Source: Escherichia coli (GTDB lineage: Bacteria; Pseudomonadota; Gammaproteobacteria; Enterobacterales; Enterobacteriaceae). From it: a stretch of DNA of 64,000 nucleotides. Where the stretch lies: NCBI RefSeq assembly GCF_009931435.1, contig NZ_CP043414.1, one strand, 5' to 3'. This document shows positions 8,059 through 46,824 of this stretch, piece by piece. Numbering within the stretch: position 1 is the first letter of the stretch; every line of letters starts with the position of its first letter. The notes under the pieces are model-generated. The model was given only the letters and a program-made list of their open reading frames with translations, had not been told where the DNA came from and did no database searches. The translations under genes and the position numbers were made by a program.

Positions 8059-9192
8059 CTACATCGGCAAGGTTTTCAACAATCCAAACGCCTCTTTCAT
8101 CCGATCCTCACTGACCACAAAAGCGCGAAGCTGGTCAGCATCGTCAACGCCGCGCGCCACCATTCCCTGGCTTTCGGTACAAATCTGCCAGCGCAAATCC
8201 CGACGCTGGGTTTCCCCTGCCAGATGCAGCGGTAATTCCGGCGTTTTGATTTTTACCAGCATGGCGGGAAGTTTCAGCGGTGCGTTTCCACCGAGCAAGT
8301 TCTTCGCCAGCACCATCGCGCTAAGTTGAATCGGCTGCAGGAACGGCAATACCTGACCGTTAATTTCTGCGCAATCGCCCAGCGCGTAAATATCGGCATT
8401 ACTGGTTTGCAGATAACTATCGACGCAAACGCCGCGATTAATCGTCAGCCCTGTACGTCGTGCCAGGGCGGTTTCCGGGCGCAGTCCGGTGGCGGCAATT
8501 ACCGCATCCACTTCGATGCTGCGCTGGCGGTCCAGCGTTGCCAGAATACCAGAATTCGTTTTTTCCAGCCCCTGCAACTGAGATTTCAACAGCAGATGAA
8601 CGCCCATCTCCGTCAACCGATGCTGCAAGCGGCTGCTTACTTCCGGTGGCATTAACGACGCCAGAATACTGGCAGCGTTGTCGATTAGCGTGACCGCTTT
8701 GCCTGCCCGACAAAAATCCATCGCCAGCTCGCTACCAATCAAGCCACCGCCAACAATCAACACGCGTCGGGCATCCCGCAGTTGCGTTTCACAGGCGCGA
8801 TACTCTTGCTGACTATTTAACGTCAGCATTAACTCACGCCCAGACACTGGCGGGACAAAGGCACTGGCACCAGTTGCCAGCACCAGCTTGTCGTATTGCC
8901 ACTGATTATTCTGGCTTTTCACCACATGGGCTTCGGCATCGATATCCGTCACCCAGGTGTGCGGAAACAGGTGCAGATTAAACTGCTCGGCAAATTCACC
9001 CGCCGTCTGGCGGGTGAGGTCATCGGCACGTTGCCCCTGGCTGATAACATGGCTAAGATCAGGTTTGTTGTACTCATCCATGCTGTCGGCGGCAATCAGG
9101 GTTAATGGAATACTGGCGTCCTGTTTGCGAATATTTTTCACCAGTTGGCGGGCGGCGAAGCCCGAACCAATGATCACAATGCCGTTGCTCAT
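8059..9192 (-). CDS. norW: NADH:flavorubredoxin oxidoreductase
   Basis: 377-aa ORF with N-terminal GxGxxA FAD/NAD-binding motif ([10 protein letters not shown]); overlaps norV by 4 nt. Confidence 0.93.
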
Positions 9193-10814: not shown

Positions 10815-12329
10815 ATGAGTTTTTCCGTTGATGTGCTGGCGAATATCGCCATCGAATTGCAGCGTGGGATTGGTCATCAGGATCGTTTTCAGCGCCTGAT
10901 CACCACGCTGCGTCAGGTGCTGGAGTGCGATGCGTCTGCGTTGCTACGTTACGACTCGCGGCAGTTTATTCCGCTTGCCATCGACGGACTGGCAAAGGAT
11001 GTACTCGGTAGACGCTTTGCCCTGGAAGGTCATCCACGGCTGGAAGCGATTGCCCGCGCCGGGGACGTGGTGCGCTTTCCCGCAGACAGCGAATTGCCCG
11101 ATCCCTATGACGGTTTGATTCCCGGGCAGGAGAGTCTGAAGGTTCACGCCTGCGTTGGTCTACCGCTGTTTGCTGGACAAAACCTGATTGGCGCATTGAC
11201 GCTCGACGGGATGCAGCCCGATCAGTTCGATGTTTTCAGCGACGAGGAGTTACGGCTGATTGCCGCTCTGGCGGCGGGGGCGTTAAGCAATGCGCTGCTG
11301 ATTGAACAACTGGAAAGTCAGAATATGCTGCCGGGCGATGCCGCGCCATTTGAAGCGGTGAAAGAGACGCAGATGATCGGTCTGTCGCCAGGCATGACGC
11401 AATTGAAAAAAGAGATTGAGATTGTGGCGGCGTCCGATCTCAACGTCCTAATCAGTGGTGAGACGGGAACCGGTAAGGAATTGGTGGCGAAAGCGATTCA
11501 TGAAGCCTCGCCACGGGCGGTGAATCCGTTAGTCTATCTCAACTGTGCCGCACTGCCGGAAAGTGTGGCGGAAAGTGAGTTGTTCGGGCACGTGAAAGGG
11601 GCGTTTACTGGCGCTATCAGTAACCGCAGTGGAAAGTTTGAAATGGCGGATAACGGCACGCTGTTTCTGGATGAGATCGGCGAGTTGTCGTTGGCATTGC
11701 AGGCCAAGCTGCTGCGGGTGTTGCAGTATGGCGATATTCAGCGCGTTGGCGATGACCGCAGTTTGCGGGTCGATGTGCGCGTGCTGGCGGCGACTAACCG
11801 CGACTTGCGCGAAGAGGTGCTGGCAGGGCGATTTCGTGCTGACTTGTTTCATCGCCTGAGTGTGTTTCCGCTTTCGGTGCCGCCGCTGCGTGAGCGGGGT
11901 GATGACGTCATTCTGCTGGCGGGGTATTACTGCGAACAGTGCCGCCTGCGGTTGGGGCTTTCCCGCGTGGTGTTAAGTTCCGGGGCGCGGAATTTATTGC
12001 AACATTATAGTTTCCCGGGGAACGTGCGCGAACTGGAACATGCTATTCATCGGGCGGTGGTGCTGGCGAGAGCGACCCGCAGCGGCGATGAAGTGATTCT
12101 CGAGGCGCAACATTTTGCTTTTTCTGAGGTGACGTTGCCGACGGCAGAAGTGCCGATGGTGCCCGTTGTTAAGCAAAACCTGCGTGAAGCGACAGAAGCG
12201 TTCCAGCGTGAAACTATTCGCCAGGCGCTGGCACAAAATCATCACAACTGGGCTGCCAGCGCACGGATGCTGGAAACCGACGTCGCCAACCTGCATCGGC
12301 TGGCGAAACGTCTGGGGCTGAAGGATTAA
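10815..12329 (+). CDS. norR: Sigma-54-dependent NO-responsive transcriptional activator
   Basis: 504-aa ORF: GAF domain N-terminus, AAA+ sigma-54 activator core ([14 protein letters not shown]), C-terminal HTH. Confidence 0.93.
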
Positions 12330-13291
12330 ATAATCCCGGCCTGATAGAAATCCTGCAGGTTAATTGCGCCGGTAAGTTTGCCGTTTTCATCCACCACTGG
12401 TGCGGCGGTGATTTTGCGTTTCATCAGAACTTCTTTGGCGTCGATGGCGCGGCTTTGCGCCTGTAATGTGGTGCCGCCTGTCGTCATCGCTTCATTAACT
12501 GGCGTGGTGAGTGCGCCGCCGCCAACCAGCCAGCGACGTAAATCCCCGTCGGTAAAGACGCCTTGGACCTGTTGTTGAACGTCGCACACGGCTACCAGTC
12601 CCAGACCGGTGCGACTGAGTTCCAGCATCGCATCCATCACGCTGGCGGTTAACGCCACCTGCGGGATGGCGTCATCACGGCGCATCAGATGATGCACTTT
12701 GTTCAGCAAGCGAGCGCCCAGTGCCCCAGCTGGGTGGGATCGGGCAAAATCTTCTTCATTAAATCCGCGCGCCTGCATGACCGCCATCGCCAGCGCGTCG
12801 CCCATCATCAGGGTATTCACAGTGCTGGAGGTCGGTGCAAGATGCATCGGGCAGGCTTCGCGTTCTACAGAGATATCCAGCACCGCTTTCGCCGCCAGGC
12901 CCAGCGGTGATGTCGGTTTACCGGTCATCGCCAGCAGCGCGATAGATTTGTCTTCCAGACGCGGAATAATCAGATCCAGTTCCTTTGCGCCACCGGAGTA
13001 AGAGATAAACAGCATCACATCGCGGCTTTCAATCATCCCCAGATCGCCGTGCAGTGCTTCTGCCGGATGGACAAAAAAAGCAGGCGTGCCGGTACTGGCA
13101 AGCGTTGCGGCGATTTTCTTACCAATGTGGCCCGATTTGCCAATTCCCGAAACCACCACTTTGCCTTCGCAGTGCAGGATGATATTGGCGGCGCGAACAA
13201 AATCATCGCCCAGACGTTCTGGTAAACGGCTTGCTTCCTGCAACTCCAGCATTAACGTCTGACGTCCCGCGTTCAGTAGTGCTTCACTCAT
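12326..13291 (-). CDS. gutQ: D-arabinose 5-phosphate isomerase (SIS + tandem CBS domains)
   Basis: 321-aa ORF at the end of the gut operon; SIS domain ([14 protein letters not shown]) plus CBS pair. Confidence 0.9.
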
Positions 13292-14057
13292 TGCTCTCTC
13301 CGGTTATGATCACATCGATCCCTTTCTCTTCCAGCGCCTGACGAAACGCCGGATCGATACCTGCGTCGGTAATTAGCTTATCGACGCTTTCAAGACTGCA
13401 AACTACGTTGGGGCTTTTACGGCCAAACTTTGATGAGTCCGCCATCAAAATCACTTCGCGCGCGGCATTACACATCGCTTTACTGACGGTATAGACCTCG
13501 TTGAAGGTAGTTACGCCTGCATTGAGATCGATGCCATCGGTGCCCATAAACAATTTATCGAAGCTGAAATGTTCGAAGGCGTTCTCTGCCAGCTGCCCGT
13601 GAAATGAGGCCGATTTTTTACGAAACGTTCCGCCTGGCATCAGGATAGTTTGTTCGTTATCCAGTTCGGATAGCGCATTGACGATATGCAGGCTGTTGGT
13701 CATTACTGTGATGTTATTAAAGCGCGAGAGCAGGGGGACCATCTGCAAAACTGTACTGCCAGCATCAAGAATGATCGAATCGCCATCATGGATAAAACTA
13801 ACGGCAGCTTCTGCAATCAGCTCTTTCTTGTGGGTGTTGATGAGTGTTTTATGATCGATAGGCGGATCGGATTCCTCTTTATTCAACACCACTCCGCCAT
13901 AAGTACGAATGACGGTTCCTGCATGTTCCAGAATGACCAGATCTTTGCGAATGGTTGTGCCTGTGGTGTCAAAGTATTGCGCCAATTCTTCAACCGAGCA
14001 TTTACCCTGCTTTTGCAGATACTCCAGAATGGCGGCCTGACGCTGACGAGGTTTCAT
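13284..14057 (-). CDS. srlR: DeoR-family glucitol operon repressor
   Basis: 257-aa ORF with N-terminal DeoR HTH ([29 protein letters not shown]); synteny. Confidence 0.9.
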
Positions 14058-29248: not shown

Positions 29249-30361
29249 TTACCTGTCAGTCACCCGATATTCCACGCTATGTGCTTCATCAGGTTGAGGA
29301 ACTTCCAGCCTTGAGGCCATCCGCATCACGACCGCTTCAGGAACGGCATACTCGCGCCTGGCATTTTGCTGCTTCCATTGCGCCCACGGTACTTCCAGAT
29401 AAACGATTTTTACTCGTGCACCGTAAGCCGTAAACAGACTGATGAGCTGGCTACGCAACTGGCGGGTAATGTTCGTTGCATTCCAGATGAACGGCTTCTT
29501 CTGGCGTAAAAAAACGCGCGCTTCTTCTTTTGCCTGTTGCACAATACGCCCGGTGGCGGTTTTGTCGTCCGGACTGGCATTGATTCGCCGCCGCATATCA
29601 TCAAGGCTGATAACGTTCACTCTCTGGCACTGTTCACTGATAAAGCGATCTTTGCCCATACCCGGTAAACCACACAGCAAAATAACCTCAAAAGATTCAG
29701 CCTCCCAGGGAACAAAATCAGGAGAACTTTGTTCATGGGTCAGGTAATGCCAGCGTGCGGAATCCGAAGCGAATGAACGCACTTTTCCCCAGCATTGTTG
29801 CTCCTGGCAAAATAGCTTGAACAGATCGATGCGTTCCAGCATTGATTGCTGATCATGACAATGGCGACCAAGCAGATCGGCACGAGCAAGCAAAGCGAGC
29901 AGACGCGTGTCGATACGCATTGCAGCCGTGAGCAGCAAACGCTCCGGTTCCGGACGTTCCAGTAACCATAGCGGTAACCCATGCAGACGCACCAGTGCAA
30001 CAATTTGCTCGCGTAGCACGAACGGTGTCGGGATATCGCGCCATAAAATTTGTCGGGCCGTCAATTCACCCCGACGAGCATGACCAGGGGACTGAATACG
30101 TCCGTTTTCCTGCACGGTAGTACTGCGCTTTTCAACGTCATGCAATAACGCCGCCGCCCATAAAATTTCCTGCTGCTGAGCGGGGAGTTGCTGAAACTCA
30201 GCCATCGCAACGAGTGCGTTCAGCACCATTTCAGTATGCACACCAACGTCGCCTTCACCATGATGCTCCGGGTCTTGCGGCGTGTTATGCATATCCTCAA
30301 CCCAGCTAAAACGCTGGCGTAGCGTCGACCAGCGTTTGTCGTCGGTAAGTTGCCAAATCAT
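29249..30361 (-). CDS. HD-domain phosphoesterase fused to P-loop NTPase (polynucleotide-kinase-like); predicted RNA/DNA end-healing enzyme
   Basis: 370-aa ORF. N-terminal HD signature: [16 protein letters not shown] (res 31-46), AALLHDVEK (res 70-78), ARADLLGR (res 159-166). C-terminal Walker A GLPGMGKD (res 231-238) and Walker B-like NVISLDD (res 249-255). Start overlaps the stop of the upstream ligase-like ORF by 4 nt. Confidence 0.65.
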
Positions 30362-31065
30362 GACTGTTCTCCATAAGCGAACTCATGGGCCATCCGCGCC
30401 CGTCGCCAGTGGCGTTTCCAGTGCTCGGTGGTTTTGACATGATTTTTGCGTACATACTTGAAGACGTTATGCGAAAAGTCAGCGACGGAAAACGCATCAC
30501 TATTCCGGCTGACAATGCCTTCCAGCGTACAGGGTTGCCCGGTTTGCGTATCCCAGGGATCGAACGCGCCGCGCGCATTGGTCAGCGCCAGAAAATCACG
30601 TTGCCAGCTTTTTTCATCATTCCCCGGCTGCGGGCCGGAGATTTCGGGAACGCAGGGGAAATCAAACAGAGCGGCGTAAAACTGCACCTCTTCCCAGCTC
30701 AGCCACATATCCTGGCAGCGAACGGCAAACAGATAAAAATCCTGCTCCAGGGCGCGATATTCAATCGAATGAACGGCATAAAGATTTTCACCAAACAACT
30801 CCAGATCGCCGAGATCGTTTTTCAGCGATTGCCAGCGTTGGCGAATTTTATAGGTCCATGCCGATTCCGTTGGCGCGGCATGGGAACGGGCAAACACGCC
30901 GAAGCGATTAAGACAGTTATTTTCGCCGTCGAGTTTTTCAGTATGTACCAACTGCGAAATTGCCTGCATATCTTGCCAGTAACTGGCGTTAATGCGGTCA
31001 TCGCTGGTGGTGCCAGGGGAGAAGGGATAATGCCAGGTTCTCCCGTATTTACGTTGGATAATCAT
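30358..31065 (-). CDS. Rnl2-like ATP-dependent RNA ligase (nucleotidyltransferase domain only)
   Basis: 235-aa ORF with candidate covalent-nucleotidyltransferase motifs in canonical order and spacing: I KLDG (K44), III LFGE (90-93), IV EGIV (182-185), V KYVRK (203-207). First gene of a 2-gene operon. Confidence 0.6.
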
Positions 31066-45489: not shown

Positions 45490-46824
45490 ATGCCGCGCTA
45501 TCAGGATATCGCCCGTCAGTTAAAAACGGCTATTGAGCAAGGGGAACTGAAACCCGGCGCAAGGCTACCTTCAAGTCGTACCTGGTCGCAGGAACTGGGG
45601 GTGTCTCGATCCACTGTCGAAAATGCGTATGCTGAGCTGGTGGCGCAAGGATGGCTGATCAGGCGGGGACAGGCTGGCACATTTGTCAGTGAGCAGATAT
45701 ATCCGCAACAATCTACTGTACAAGTTGTGTCTTTTGCCGGTGAAAGTCAGCAACCGTTGCCATTTCAAATGGGATTACCCGCACTCGATCTCTTTCCGCG
45801 AGAGCTGTGGGCGCGGGTGATGGGGCGTCGCCTTCGTACCCAGACGCGCTTTGATTTGGCGTTAGGCGATGTCTGCGGTGAGGCGGCGTTGCGTGAGGCA
45901 ATAGTTGATTACTTACGCGTTTCACGTGGGATTGATTGTCAGCCAGAGCAGGTCTTTATCACTCACGGTTATGCGGCCTCAATGGCTTTAATTCTGCACG
46001 CGCTGGCGAAACCGGGAAACGGGATGTGGATGGAAGATCCCGGCTTTCCACTGATTCGCCCGATTGTCACTCGCCACGGTGTGGAAATTTTGCCTGTGCC
46101 GGTTGATGACAACGGACTGGATATCACAAGCGGAATACAAAATTATCCTGATGCGTGTTTTGCCCTGATAACACCAGCACACCAAAGCCCGCTGGGTGTG
46201 GCGCTCTCTTTAGCGCGCAGGCATCAGATACTGGAATGGGCAGAGCGTAGTCAGGCATGGATTATTGAAGATGATTATGACAGTGAGTTTCGCTATCACG
46301 GTAAGCCGTTACCGGCGTTAAAAAGTCTCGATGCACCGCAGCGGGTAATTTATGCCGGAACATTCAGCAAAGCACTATTTCCTGCATTGCGCTGTGCGTG
46401 GCTGGTGGTGCCGGTGAAGCAAATTGCACAATTCCGCCACCAGGCGTCACTGGCTCCATGTGCGGTACCTGTTCTATGGCAGAACACACTGGCAGACTTT
46501 CTTCGCGAGGGGCATTTCTGGCGGCATCTGAAGAAAATGCGTCAGCATTATGCTCAACGTCGGCAATGGATTGAGCAAGCGTTGACGCAGCAGGGATTTC
46601 AGGTTGTGCCGCAGAAAGGTGGTATCCAGATGGTGATCAGAATGATGGGCGATGATATTGCCCATGCGCGTAAAGCCAATGCTGCAGGCCTTGCGGTGCA
46701 GGCACTTAGCGACTGGCGTATCCGCTCAAGTGGGGAAGGTGGATTACTTCTCTCGTTTACCAATATCGTTAACGAAGGTATGGCGCGACAGGTAGCACAA
46801 CAATTACGTAAAGCCTTAAGCTAA
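45490..46824 (+). CDS. MocR/GabR-type regulator (GntR wHTH fused to PLP-dependent aminotransferase-like domain)
   Basis: 444-aa ORF; N-terminal GntR HTH (YQDIARQLKTAIEQGELKPGARLPSSRTWSQELGVSRSTVENAYAELVAQGWL), C-terminal class-I aminotransferase-like region with candidate PLP lysine (FSKALFP). Confidence 0.75.
   Translation: MPRYQDIARQLKTAIEQGELKPGARLPSSRTWSQELGVSRSTVENAYAELVAQGWLIRRGQAGTFVSEQIYPQQSTVQVVSFAGESQQPLPFQMGLPALDLFPRELWARVMGRRLRTQTRFDLALGDVCGEAALREAIVDYLRVSRGIDCQPEQVFITHGYAASMALILHALAKPGNGMWMEDPGFPLIRPIVTRHGVEILPVPVDDNGLDITSGIQNYPDACFALITPAHQSPLGVALSLARRHQILEWAERSQAWIIEDDYDSEFRYHGKPLPALKSLDAPQRVIYAGTFSKALFPALRCAWLVVPVKQIAQFRHQASLAPCAVPVLWQNTLADFLREGHFWRHLKKMRQHYAQRRQWIEQALTQQGFQVVPQKGGIQMVIRMMGDDIAHARKANAAGLAVQALSDWRIRSSGEGGLLLSFTNIVNEGMARQVAQQLRKALS

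Follow-up and report, generated by a model that had tools for sequence, protein, structure and literature searches.

A conserved RNA hairpin within the last norR codons as the probable 3'-end signal of the convergent gutQ message

Introduction

Where can the 3'-end signals of two convergent transcripts be placed when no DNA lies between the genes? The question is raised by norR and gutQ in a 64,000-nt stretch of Escherichia coli DNA (contig NZ_CP043414.1, here called the window), in which the stop codons of the two genes share bases. A sequence-only reading of this DNA had proposed that the arrangement leaves no room for terminators, that the two transcripts must overlap at their 3' ends, and that transcriptional interference or antisense pairing between the gut and nor operons could follow. 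The overlap itself matters little, being annotated, of a common kind, and with its transcript overlap already catalogued. The locus serves as a worked example of convergent genes without a spacer, in which one operon would carry its 3'-end signals within the neighbouring coding sequence.

Results

The norR/gutQ junction

The following features define the junction.

10815 to 12329, + strand: norR coding sequence, 504 aa, sigma-54 enhancer-binding NO sensor, stop TAA at 12327-12329 (ORF list, NCBIfam, RefSeq)
12326 to 13291, - strand: gutQ coding sequence, 321 aa, arabinose-5-phosphate isomerase, stop TAA being the complement of 12326-12328 (ORF list, NCBIfam, RefSeq)
12326 to 12329, no strand assigned: shared tetramer TTAA, read from the sequence and kept as TTAA, CTAA, CTAG or TTAG at 62 of 79 loci

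Direct readout of window positions 12320-12329 gave GAAGGATTAA, with TTAA at 12326-12329. Base 12326 is the third base of both the last norR codon and the gutQ stop, bases 12327-12328 belong to both stops, and base 12329 is the third base of both the norR stop and the last gutQ codon; the stops are thus interlocked with 2 nt in common, and the reading frames including stops overlap by 4 nt. The encoded proteins were compared with NCBIfam equivalogs, NorR matching NF003451 with 820.6 bits over profile positions 3-511 of 512 and GutQ matching NF008581 with 674 bits over 1-321 of 321; since both proteins are full length, the stops are true gene ends and not an annotation artefact. The gene names, coordinates and 2-nt stop overlap given in the sequence-only reading were right, with window sequence, ORF list, NCBIfam and RefSeq in agreement; no intergenic space exists, the reading frames sharing 4 nt.

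gutQ is the final gene of the srlAEBD-gutM-srlR-gutQ cluster, with srlR, gutM and srlDBEA co-directional on its far side, and norVW is divergent from norR on the other. In RefSeq, the identical strain and K-12 (b2708/b2709) both carry this 4-nt overlap, with gutQ at 2829813-2830778 and norR at 2830775-2832289 in MG1655. The overlap is an already annotated and catalogued arrangement and not a new finding.

Frequency and conservation of the overlap

A 1,051-bp junction query matched 5,425 of 5,426 complete E. coli genomes, and the matched genes were always annotated as norR and gutQ. With each species represented by a single genome, GutQ was found encoded at 80 loci, of which 79 were usable. The 4-nt overlap was kept at 62 of the 79, with the tetramers (in gutQ sense) TTAA at 25, CTAA at 25, CTAG at 10 and TTAG at 2, all four tetramers able to interlock two TAA/TAG stops being found among them. 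An 8-nt overlap was present at two loci, both in Enterobacter, and a 38-nt overlap at 12. Of these 12, 11 came from Klebsiella or Raoultella; in them a 7-nt deletion has put the end of norR into another frame, so that the protein continues for about 10 additional aa. The norR tail was absent at three loci, and a simple spacer between norR and gutQ was found at none of the 79. Across these loci the last residue of NorR was variable (D, G, S, R, A, P or N), and that of GutQ was I or L.

Because 62 of the 79 species-level loci retain the 4-nt overlap, the arrangement is conserved and not a chance juxtaposition. The overlap is ancient, and the interlocked stops (N-TA-N) would predate the divergence of the Enterobacteriaceae genera. 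The junction evolves through point substitution and deletion, and never by gain of a spacer; the simplest reason may be that any insertion or deletion there alters a C-terminus.

Convergent overlap as a class is fairly common. E. coli has 663 overlapping adjacent pairs, of which 75 are convergent (Huvet & Stumpf 2014, PMC4161906). The nine convergent pairs in the 64-kb window have spacers of 158, 127, -4, 38, 44, 56, 36, 46 and 0 nt, so that one pair overlaps and kbp/csiR lie end to end with nothing between them.

A stable hairpin beyond the gutQ stop

12279 to 12312, - strand: conserved hairpin in gutQ-sense RNA (fold energy, pairing, synonymous constraint, recoding)

The hairpin is located 14-47 nt beyond the gutQ stop, within norR codons 489-500. 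It contains 13 bp in total, divided between a lower stem of 4 bp (12309-12312 with 12279-12282) and an upper stem of 9 bp (12298-12306 with 12283-12291; UCGCCAGCC/GGUUGGCGA), with a 2-nt internal loop and a 6-nt loop at 12292-12297. MG1655 carries an identical hairpin at 2,830,792-2,830,825. When gutQ-sense RNA past the stop was folded, 100 nt gave -38 kcal/mol (z -3.0) and 70 nt gave -30.9 kcal/mol (z -4.0), and the stable stem-loop shortly after the stop was also present in the 45-nt fold (dG -23.5).

The tail that follows the hairpin, GGUUUCC in Escherichia and CAUCUCC in Enterobacter, has no U-tract, and for this reason the structure is not a canonical intrinsic terminator. A consensus terminator scan found no hairpin-plus-U-tract site on the - strand, and the Rfam 15 covariance models gave no match with E<=1 in 11500-13400. 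The claim that there is no room for terminators holds for intergenic space but fails for 3'-end signals, given this hairpin inside norR.

Selection on the hairpin at the nucleotide level

For synonymous variation, the codons of 72 norR orthologues were aligned and compared in 12-codon windows with 2000 permutations. The least synonymous variation in norR was found at codons 488-499 (relative entropy -0.64), a value reached in 0 of 2000 permutations (permuted minimum -0.35 +/- 0.06, P<=0.001), and the next independent window stood at -0.27. Several codons were nearly fixed, namely A491 as GCC in 72/72, A497 as GCG in 71/72 and V490 as GTC in 68/72, and the unpaired third positions of H494 (in the loop) and K498 (in the internal loop) varied at the normal rate. 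A separate protein search, meant to supply norR orthologues without a gutQ neighbour as a control, yielded nothing beyond close relatives from the Enterobacteriaceae.

Stability was compared with that of 5,000 codon-usage-weighted synonymous recodings of norR in which the NorR protein was kept. The native gutQ-sense minimum free energy of -23.5 stood against -10.7 +/- 3.2 for the recoded sequences, only 0.02% of which were as stable, and when all 164 norR windows were scanned in the antisense direction the three most extreme were the three hairpin windows (z -3.65, -3.48 and -2.91, the next being -2.24).

When the 13 pairs were followed through 62 species, 99.1% of cells were paired. Compensatory changes were seen at pair 42/51, which passes from CG through UG to UA within Citrobacter, and at pair 36/57, from CG to UA. 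As the hairpin is very conserved, covariation is thin, with 3 compensatory against 7 unpaired cells, and all 7 of the latter are G-U in the norR sense. On these three independent lines, synonymous constraint, stability against recoding and cross-species pairing, the hairpin is selected at the nucleotide level, and it restricts synonymous codon choice at norR codons 489-499. A hidden antisense gene was considered as the source of the constraint (ORF 11994 to 12296, - strand, with its ATG in the hairpin loop) and was rejected, its length ranging from 8 to 177 aa among species.

Loci that have lost or displaced norR

The norR gene is gone from Enterobacter sichuanensis, where the remnant still forms the hairpin, now with 10 bp in the stem and GUGU in the loop; each of its four substitutions either maintains pairing or adds to it. 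In Kosakonia quasisacchari the norR 3' end is tandemly triplicated and the gutQ-proximal copy retains the hairpin. In Escherichia sp. MOD1-EC7003, norR-norVW is deleted and hypF now adjoins; a 45-nt remnant stops right after the upper stem, with one pair broken, and REP-like repeats come after it. Kosakonia cowanii has a different structure at the hairpin position, and in Enterobacteriaceae bacterium UBA7338 the insertion of a prlF/yhaV toxin-antitoxin cassette has duplicated about 31 nt, and a canonical terminator now follows gutQ (GCGUUC-UACUGU-GAACGC-UUUUUCUU). The picture from these five loci is mixed and the support weak, the hairpin being kept in two, eroded in one and replaced in two.

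Published Rho-dependent termination on the gutQ-sense strand

11728 to 12221, - strand: C-rich, G-poor tract of gutQ-sense read-through RNA, candidate Rho loading region (C/G 1.2-1.7 in 78-nt windows)
11816, - strand: putative homologue of MG1655 2,831,288 (+), where a published Rho region peaks, placed by coordinate transfer on the ground that both genes have the same length
13758, - strand: putative homologue of MG1655 2,829,346 (+), a published Rho region inside srlR, likewise placed by coordinate transfer

Downstream of the hairpin, C exceeds G in the gutQ-sense RNA from +105 to +598 (C/G 1.2-1.7). Published data for MG1655 contain a Rho termination region at 2,831,288 (+), described as 'antisense norR', with a Rho score of 5.27 and p 2e-12 (Adams et al. 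2021, PMC7815308, Supplementary file 2). Reads up- and downstream of this position numbered 87/25 without bicyclomycin and 130/197 with it (PMC7815308). The position is 510 nt past the gutQ stop, at about 11816 in the window. As the Rho score is taken over 800-nt windows, the terminated RNA could begin either at gutQ or within norR, although a sequence scan found no promoter-like site on the gutQ-sense strand.

The Rho region inside srlR had 697 reads upstream and 76 downstream in LB without bicyclomycin, an attenuation of about 9-fold before gutQ (PMC7815308), and with such Rho-dependent attenuation little gut transcription would reach the junction under non-inducing conditions. The Term-seq data of Adams et al. 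2021, from LB and M63 glucose cultures in which the gut operon was not induced, contain no 3' end between 2,830,100 and 2,831,299 (PMC7815308), and the SMRT-Cappable-seq supplements mention neither gutQ nor norR.

In Rho-dependent transcripts of a class described by Dar & Sorek (2018, PMC6061677), a stem-loop without a U-tract is followed by RNA with C in excess of G, and trimming by PNPase and RNase II leaves a precise, protected 3' end; some of these stem-loop/Rho sites lie in coding regions of downstream genes (PMC6061677). From the combination of a stem-loop without a U-tract, an excess of C over G downstream and Rho dependence, the hairpin in norR was assigned to this known class, the protective stem-loops of Rho-dependent terminators, to which it would belong.

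The norR-side transcript end and the junction hairpin

12395 to 12420, + strand: weak terminator-like motif in norR-sense RNA, a 5-bp stem then AUUUUGCGUU, starting 66 nt past the norR stop (conservation tests negative)
12315 to 12342, no strand assigned: 11-bp hairpin straddling the junction in this strain (dG -12.9 kcal/mol, z -2.4)

A conserved norR terminator or structure inside gutQ was looked for and rejected: terminator-like sites on the + strand were no more numerous than in shuffled sequences, synonymous constraint in gutQ was not significant (P=0.24), recoding gave a z of about -1.6, and RNAalifold on 26 species returned no convincing structure. By scan, constraint, recoding and RNAalifold, no signal comparable to the gutQ hairpin was found on the norR side, and the published set contains no Rho region or 3' end there (PMC7815308).

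The hairpin straddling the junction was likewise rejected as a shared bidirectional terminator, as it is not conserved in other genera and has no flanking U- or A-tracts. Its cells were paired in 79%, with two pairs broken in 31 of the 62 species, and it is probably incidental. With no intergenic space and this hairpin unconserved, no bidirectional terminator of the convergent pair was found at the junction.

Discussion

A proposed 3' end for the gutQ message

Since no spacer exists, the gut-side 3'-end signals would lie inside norR. Past the gutQ stop, RNA polymerase would transcribe the antisense of the norR 3' end, and this untranslated RNA would first fold into the stable stem-loop without a U-tract at 12279-12312. 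C-rich, G-poor RNA would next be exposed, Rho would load, and termination would take place a few hundred nt into norR. 3'-to-5' exonucleases would next degrade the RNA as far as the stem-loop, and the stem-loop would set and protect the mature 3' end. On the gut side, mature RNA probably overlaps by about 50 nt and nascent RNA by as much as about 0.5 kb, and transcript overlap would be a built-in consequence of the anatomy.

The overlap, its conservation, the hairpin and the selection on its nucleotides are shown by the present analysis, the overlapping transcription and the Rho dependence are taken from published MG1655 data, and the only new point is the conserved RNA hairpin inside the last norR codons. 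This hairpin is probably the 3'-end signal of the gutQ message, and from its fold and setting we infer its protective, 3'-end-defining role. The proposal as a whole, which comprises the interlocked stops, the gut 3' signals inside norR, the hairpin with Rho termination and the trimming by exonucleases, is considered more likely than not.

Alternative readings

The same palindrome might act in the norR sense or as DNA instead of as a gutQ 3' element, for example as an mRNA element affecting norR decay or translation or as an inverted repeat bound by protein. The norR-sense RNA does fold better than 99.6% of synonymous recodings (P=0.004), and each of the 7 cells that are unpaired in the gutQ sense is a G-U pair in the norR sense. 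In 61 of 62 species, however, the fold is stronger in the gutQ sense, at -22.9 kcal/mol, than in the norR sense, at -18.8 kcal/mol; 99.1% of cells are paired in the former and 92.2% in the latter, and the consensus G-U pair 41/52 becomes an A-C mismatch in the norR sense, and a mismatch in a DNA palindrome. A norR-sense structure would moreover stand within a translated reading frame, where ribosomes would unwind it, and the hairpin persists, even improved, in the norR-less E. sichuanensis. On the G-U pair, the greater stability in 61 of 62 species and the position of a norR-sense element inside a translated frame, the hairpin is assigned to the gutQ sense with moderate confidence, and action in the norR sense or as DNA is thought quite unlikely. 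Alternatively, the hairpin might itself be a terminator, assisted by NusA/NusG or driven by polymerase collision, ending transcription about 50 nt into norR and keeping the overlap short. Its GC-rich stem of about -23 kcal/mol beginning 14 nt after the stop would suit this role, as would the short GGUUU after the stem in Escherichia, and single-molecule work has stem-loops positioning head-on polymerase collisions at convergent gene boundaries (bioRxiv 10.1101/2022.10.23.513370). This reading is nevertheless improbable, as a conserved U-tract is absent, the A- and U-tracts typical of bidirectional terminators do not flank the hairpin, and the Rho-dependent region 510 nt on implies read-through past it. 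A frozen accident, in which the genes were pushed together and the hairpin is a by-product of the coding sequence for the NorR helix-turn-helix, would fit with how common short convergent overlaps are (75 in E. coli) and with norR codons 358-372, an equally strong sense fold outlier (z -4.1) that has no conservation signal. Two independent tests, synonymous conservation (P<=0.001) and recoding (0.02%), converge nonetheless on the same 12 codons, with variation limited to unpaired positions, and the accident is accordingly rated as very improbable.

A different kind of alternative concerns the overlap and not the hairpin. Complete norR and gutQ mRNAs must overlap, as the sequence-only reading had said, and gutQ-norR is among the 165 convergent MG1655 pairs with overlapping transcription in >=50% of 58 transcriptomes (ExcludonFinder, NAR 2025, PMC12288877). 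In a regulatory excludon, this obligatory 3' overlap would be used for control between the gut and nor operons: once gut is induced, its polymerases and antisense RNA would enter norR (or the other way round), and the partner would be expressed less, either because polymerases collide head-on or because RNase III cuts the sense-antisense duplex. Such use is in keeping with the overlapping transcription catalogued in MG1655, with gutQ-sense transcription that extends about 0.5 kb into norR under restraint by Rho, and with a tail-to-tail order that is kept across many genera without a spacer ever being acquired. Against it, retention of the overlap is more simply explained by the change that any insertion or deletion would make to one or both C-termini, and at the junction the transcription units on either side are weak, gut being attenuated about 9-fold in srlR in LB. 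The pairing is also dispensable, as norR has been lost in three lineages and insertions have occurred in two more. No obvious physiological connection is known that would tie NO detoxification to the use of sorbitol or to the supply of KDO precursor, and both promoters that feed the junction are weak. The four papers found to name both genes have nothing on cross-talk, no expression data linking the operons were found, and no report of reciprocal expression or RNase III processing for gutQ-norR was found among them. The gut and nor operons might be coupled in their regulation; the weak promoters, the Rho region in srlR and the lineages in which the pair is lost or separated are several points that argue against a strong effect under ordinary conditions, and the excludon is judged unlikely. 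A more specific version would make a cross-operon device of the gutQ hairpin in norR and the spacer-free junction, with sorbitol-induced read-through, its extent set by Rho, entering the last 0.5 kb or so of norR and lowering NorR synthesis by collision or duplex decay. Little credence is given to this device, which, if real, would link sugar-alcohol metabolism to the NO-detoxification response across Enterobacteriaceae.

Implications and comparison with known systems

Under the preferred reading, in which the hairpin marks the 3' end of the gutQ message in concert with Rho, the synonymous codons of the neighbouring gene have been restricted for what we take to be roughly 100 million years. 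This bears on the interpretation of synonymous constraint and on the annotation of 3' UTRs and of Rho terminators located inside genes. It also bears on genome recoding and refactoring, where the gutQ message could lose stability if the final norR codons were exchanged for synonymous ones.

In REP-type 3' stem-loops, a stable hairpin downstream of the last gene of an operon blocks 3' exonucleases and so stabilises the mRNA. The gutQ hairpin differs from these in being a unique sequence inside a coding region and not a repeated extragenic element. The short convergent overlaps with interlocked stops offer a close parallel for the junction: two full-length genes encoded on opposite strands have 4 nt (N-TA-N) in common, each stop using the TA of the other, and the norR/gutQ overlap is conserved among orthologous pairs; nothing essential sets it apart, and in Klebsiella and Raoultella the 7-nt deletion has extended the overlap to 38 nt. 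Convergent excludons (PMC12288877) include gutQ-norR by name on account of its overlapping transcription, but the class is defined by mutually exclusive expression or RNase III processing, and gutQ-norR would be a candidate member. Intrinsic or bidirectional convergent terminators (SEnd-seq; RNAP collision model, bioRxiv 10.1101/2022.10.23.513370) resemble the gutQ side in having a GC-rich hairpin near the boundary, and differ from it in that the gutQ hairpin has neither U-tract, A-tract nor intergenic position and the hairpin straddling the junction is unconserved. The likeness is greatest to the Rho terminators with a protective stem-loop described by Dar & Sorek (PMC6061677), which share with the gutQ side a stable stem-loop near the stop, the lack of a U-tract, an excess of C over G downstream and bicyclomycin-sensitive read-through, the last of these as published for MG1655. 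Members of that class have a precise 3' end set by the stem-loop, and the gutQ hairpin is placed among them from its fold, the base composition and the Rho region; a difference from them is that the gutQ element sits on the strand antisense to a convergent gene, whose codons it measurably constrains across a bacterial family.

Rearrangements of the gutQ-norR junction

norR has been lost or displaced at several gutQ loci, three of which are as follows. In Kosakonia quasisacchari (L050:3967-4250), three tandem copies of a unit lie between gutQ and an intact norR; the unit consists of the last ~50 nt of norR, with the conserved stem-loop of the gutQ-sense RNA (the hairpin) in them, plus about 40 nt, so that the two genes lie 243 nt apart. 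The pair is split in Enterobacteriaceae bacterium UBA7338 (L043:3990-4940) by a toxin-antitoxin cassette, prlF/yhaV (PF15937 and PF11663 in Pfam), inserted precisely at the gutQ-norR boundary; roughly 31 nt from the 3' end of norR are duplicated, and a canonical intrinsic terminator now stands 3' of gutQ. The locus of Escherichia sp. MOD1-EC7003 (L007:3967-4130) carries a deletion of norR, norV and norW, and the order is gutQ, a 45-nt norR remnant, REP-like repeats and hypF.

Folding and termination in the flanking genes

The top sense-strand folding outlier of norR against synonymous recodings was found at codons 358-372 (11886-11930; -22.1 kcal/mol, z -4.1), and synonymous variation at these codons showed no dip to match the fold. 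On the gut side, a Rho-dependent termination region has been mapped inside srlR at MG1655 2,829,346, homologous to window position ~13758, with 697 reads upstream and 76 downstream without bicyclomycin (PMC7815308), which suggests that the distal gut genes are attenuated in LB by this region.

Lineage of the window

Over the segment 11800-12850, identity was 100% with R32_14_1F, an 'E. coli' strain from goat (NZ_CP074749.1), but only about 92.5% with E. coli of the K-12 type; among the 5,426 complete genomes filed as 'E. coli', only 16 reach at least 95% identity across it. The window probably originates from a divergent (cryptic-clade) Escherichia lineage catalogued as E. coli.

A two-gene insert that is not known from K-12 was observed between luxS and emrB (29249-31065). 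One gene encodes a kinase-like protein (HD + AAA_33), the other a member of an RNA ligase family. The insert has the look of an RNA-repair pair; PADLOC gave no match for it. Separately, a PLP-dependent aminotransferase-family gene (45490-46824) is a pseudogene with an internal stop according to the annotation of the identical strain.

Other gene junctions in the window

Two co-directional overlaps, both of the usual translational-coupling type, were also noted:

13284-13291, srlR/gutQ overlap, 8 nt, co-directional
9189-9192, norV/norW overlap, 4 nt, co-directional

Elsewhere, kbp (plus strand, end 51017) and csiR/glaR (minus strand, end 51018) converge with a spacer of 0 nt and form a second pair in the window without space for an intergenic terminator. 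The ExcludonFinder list of MG1655 convergent pairs with overlapping transcripts, in which gutQ-norR appears, also contains glaR-kbp (PMC12288877).
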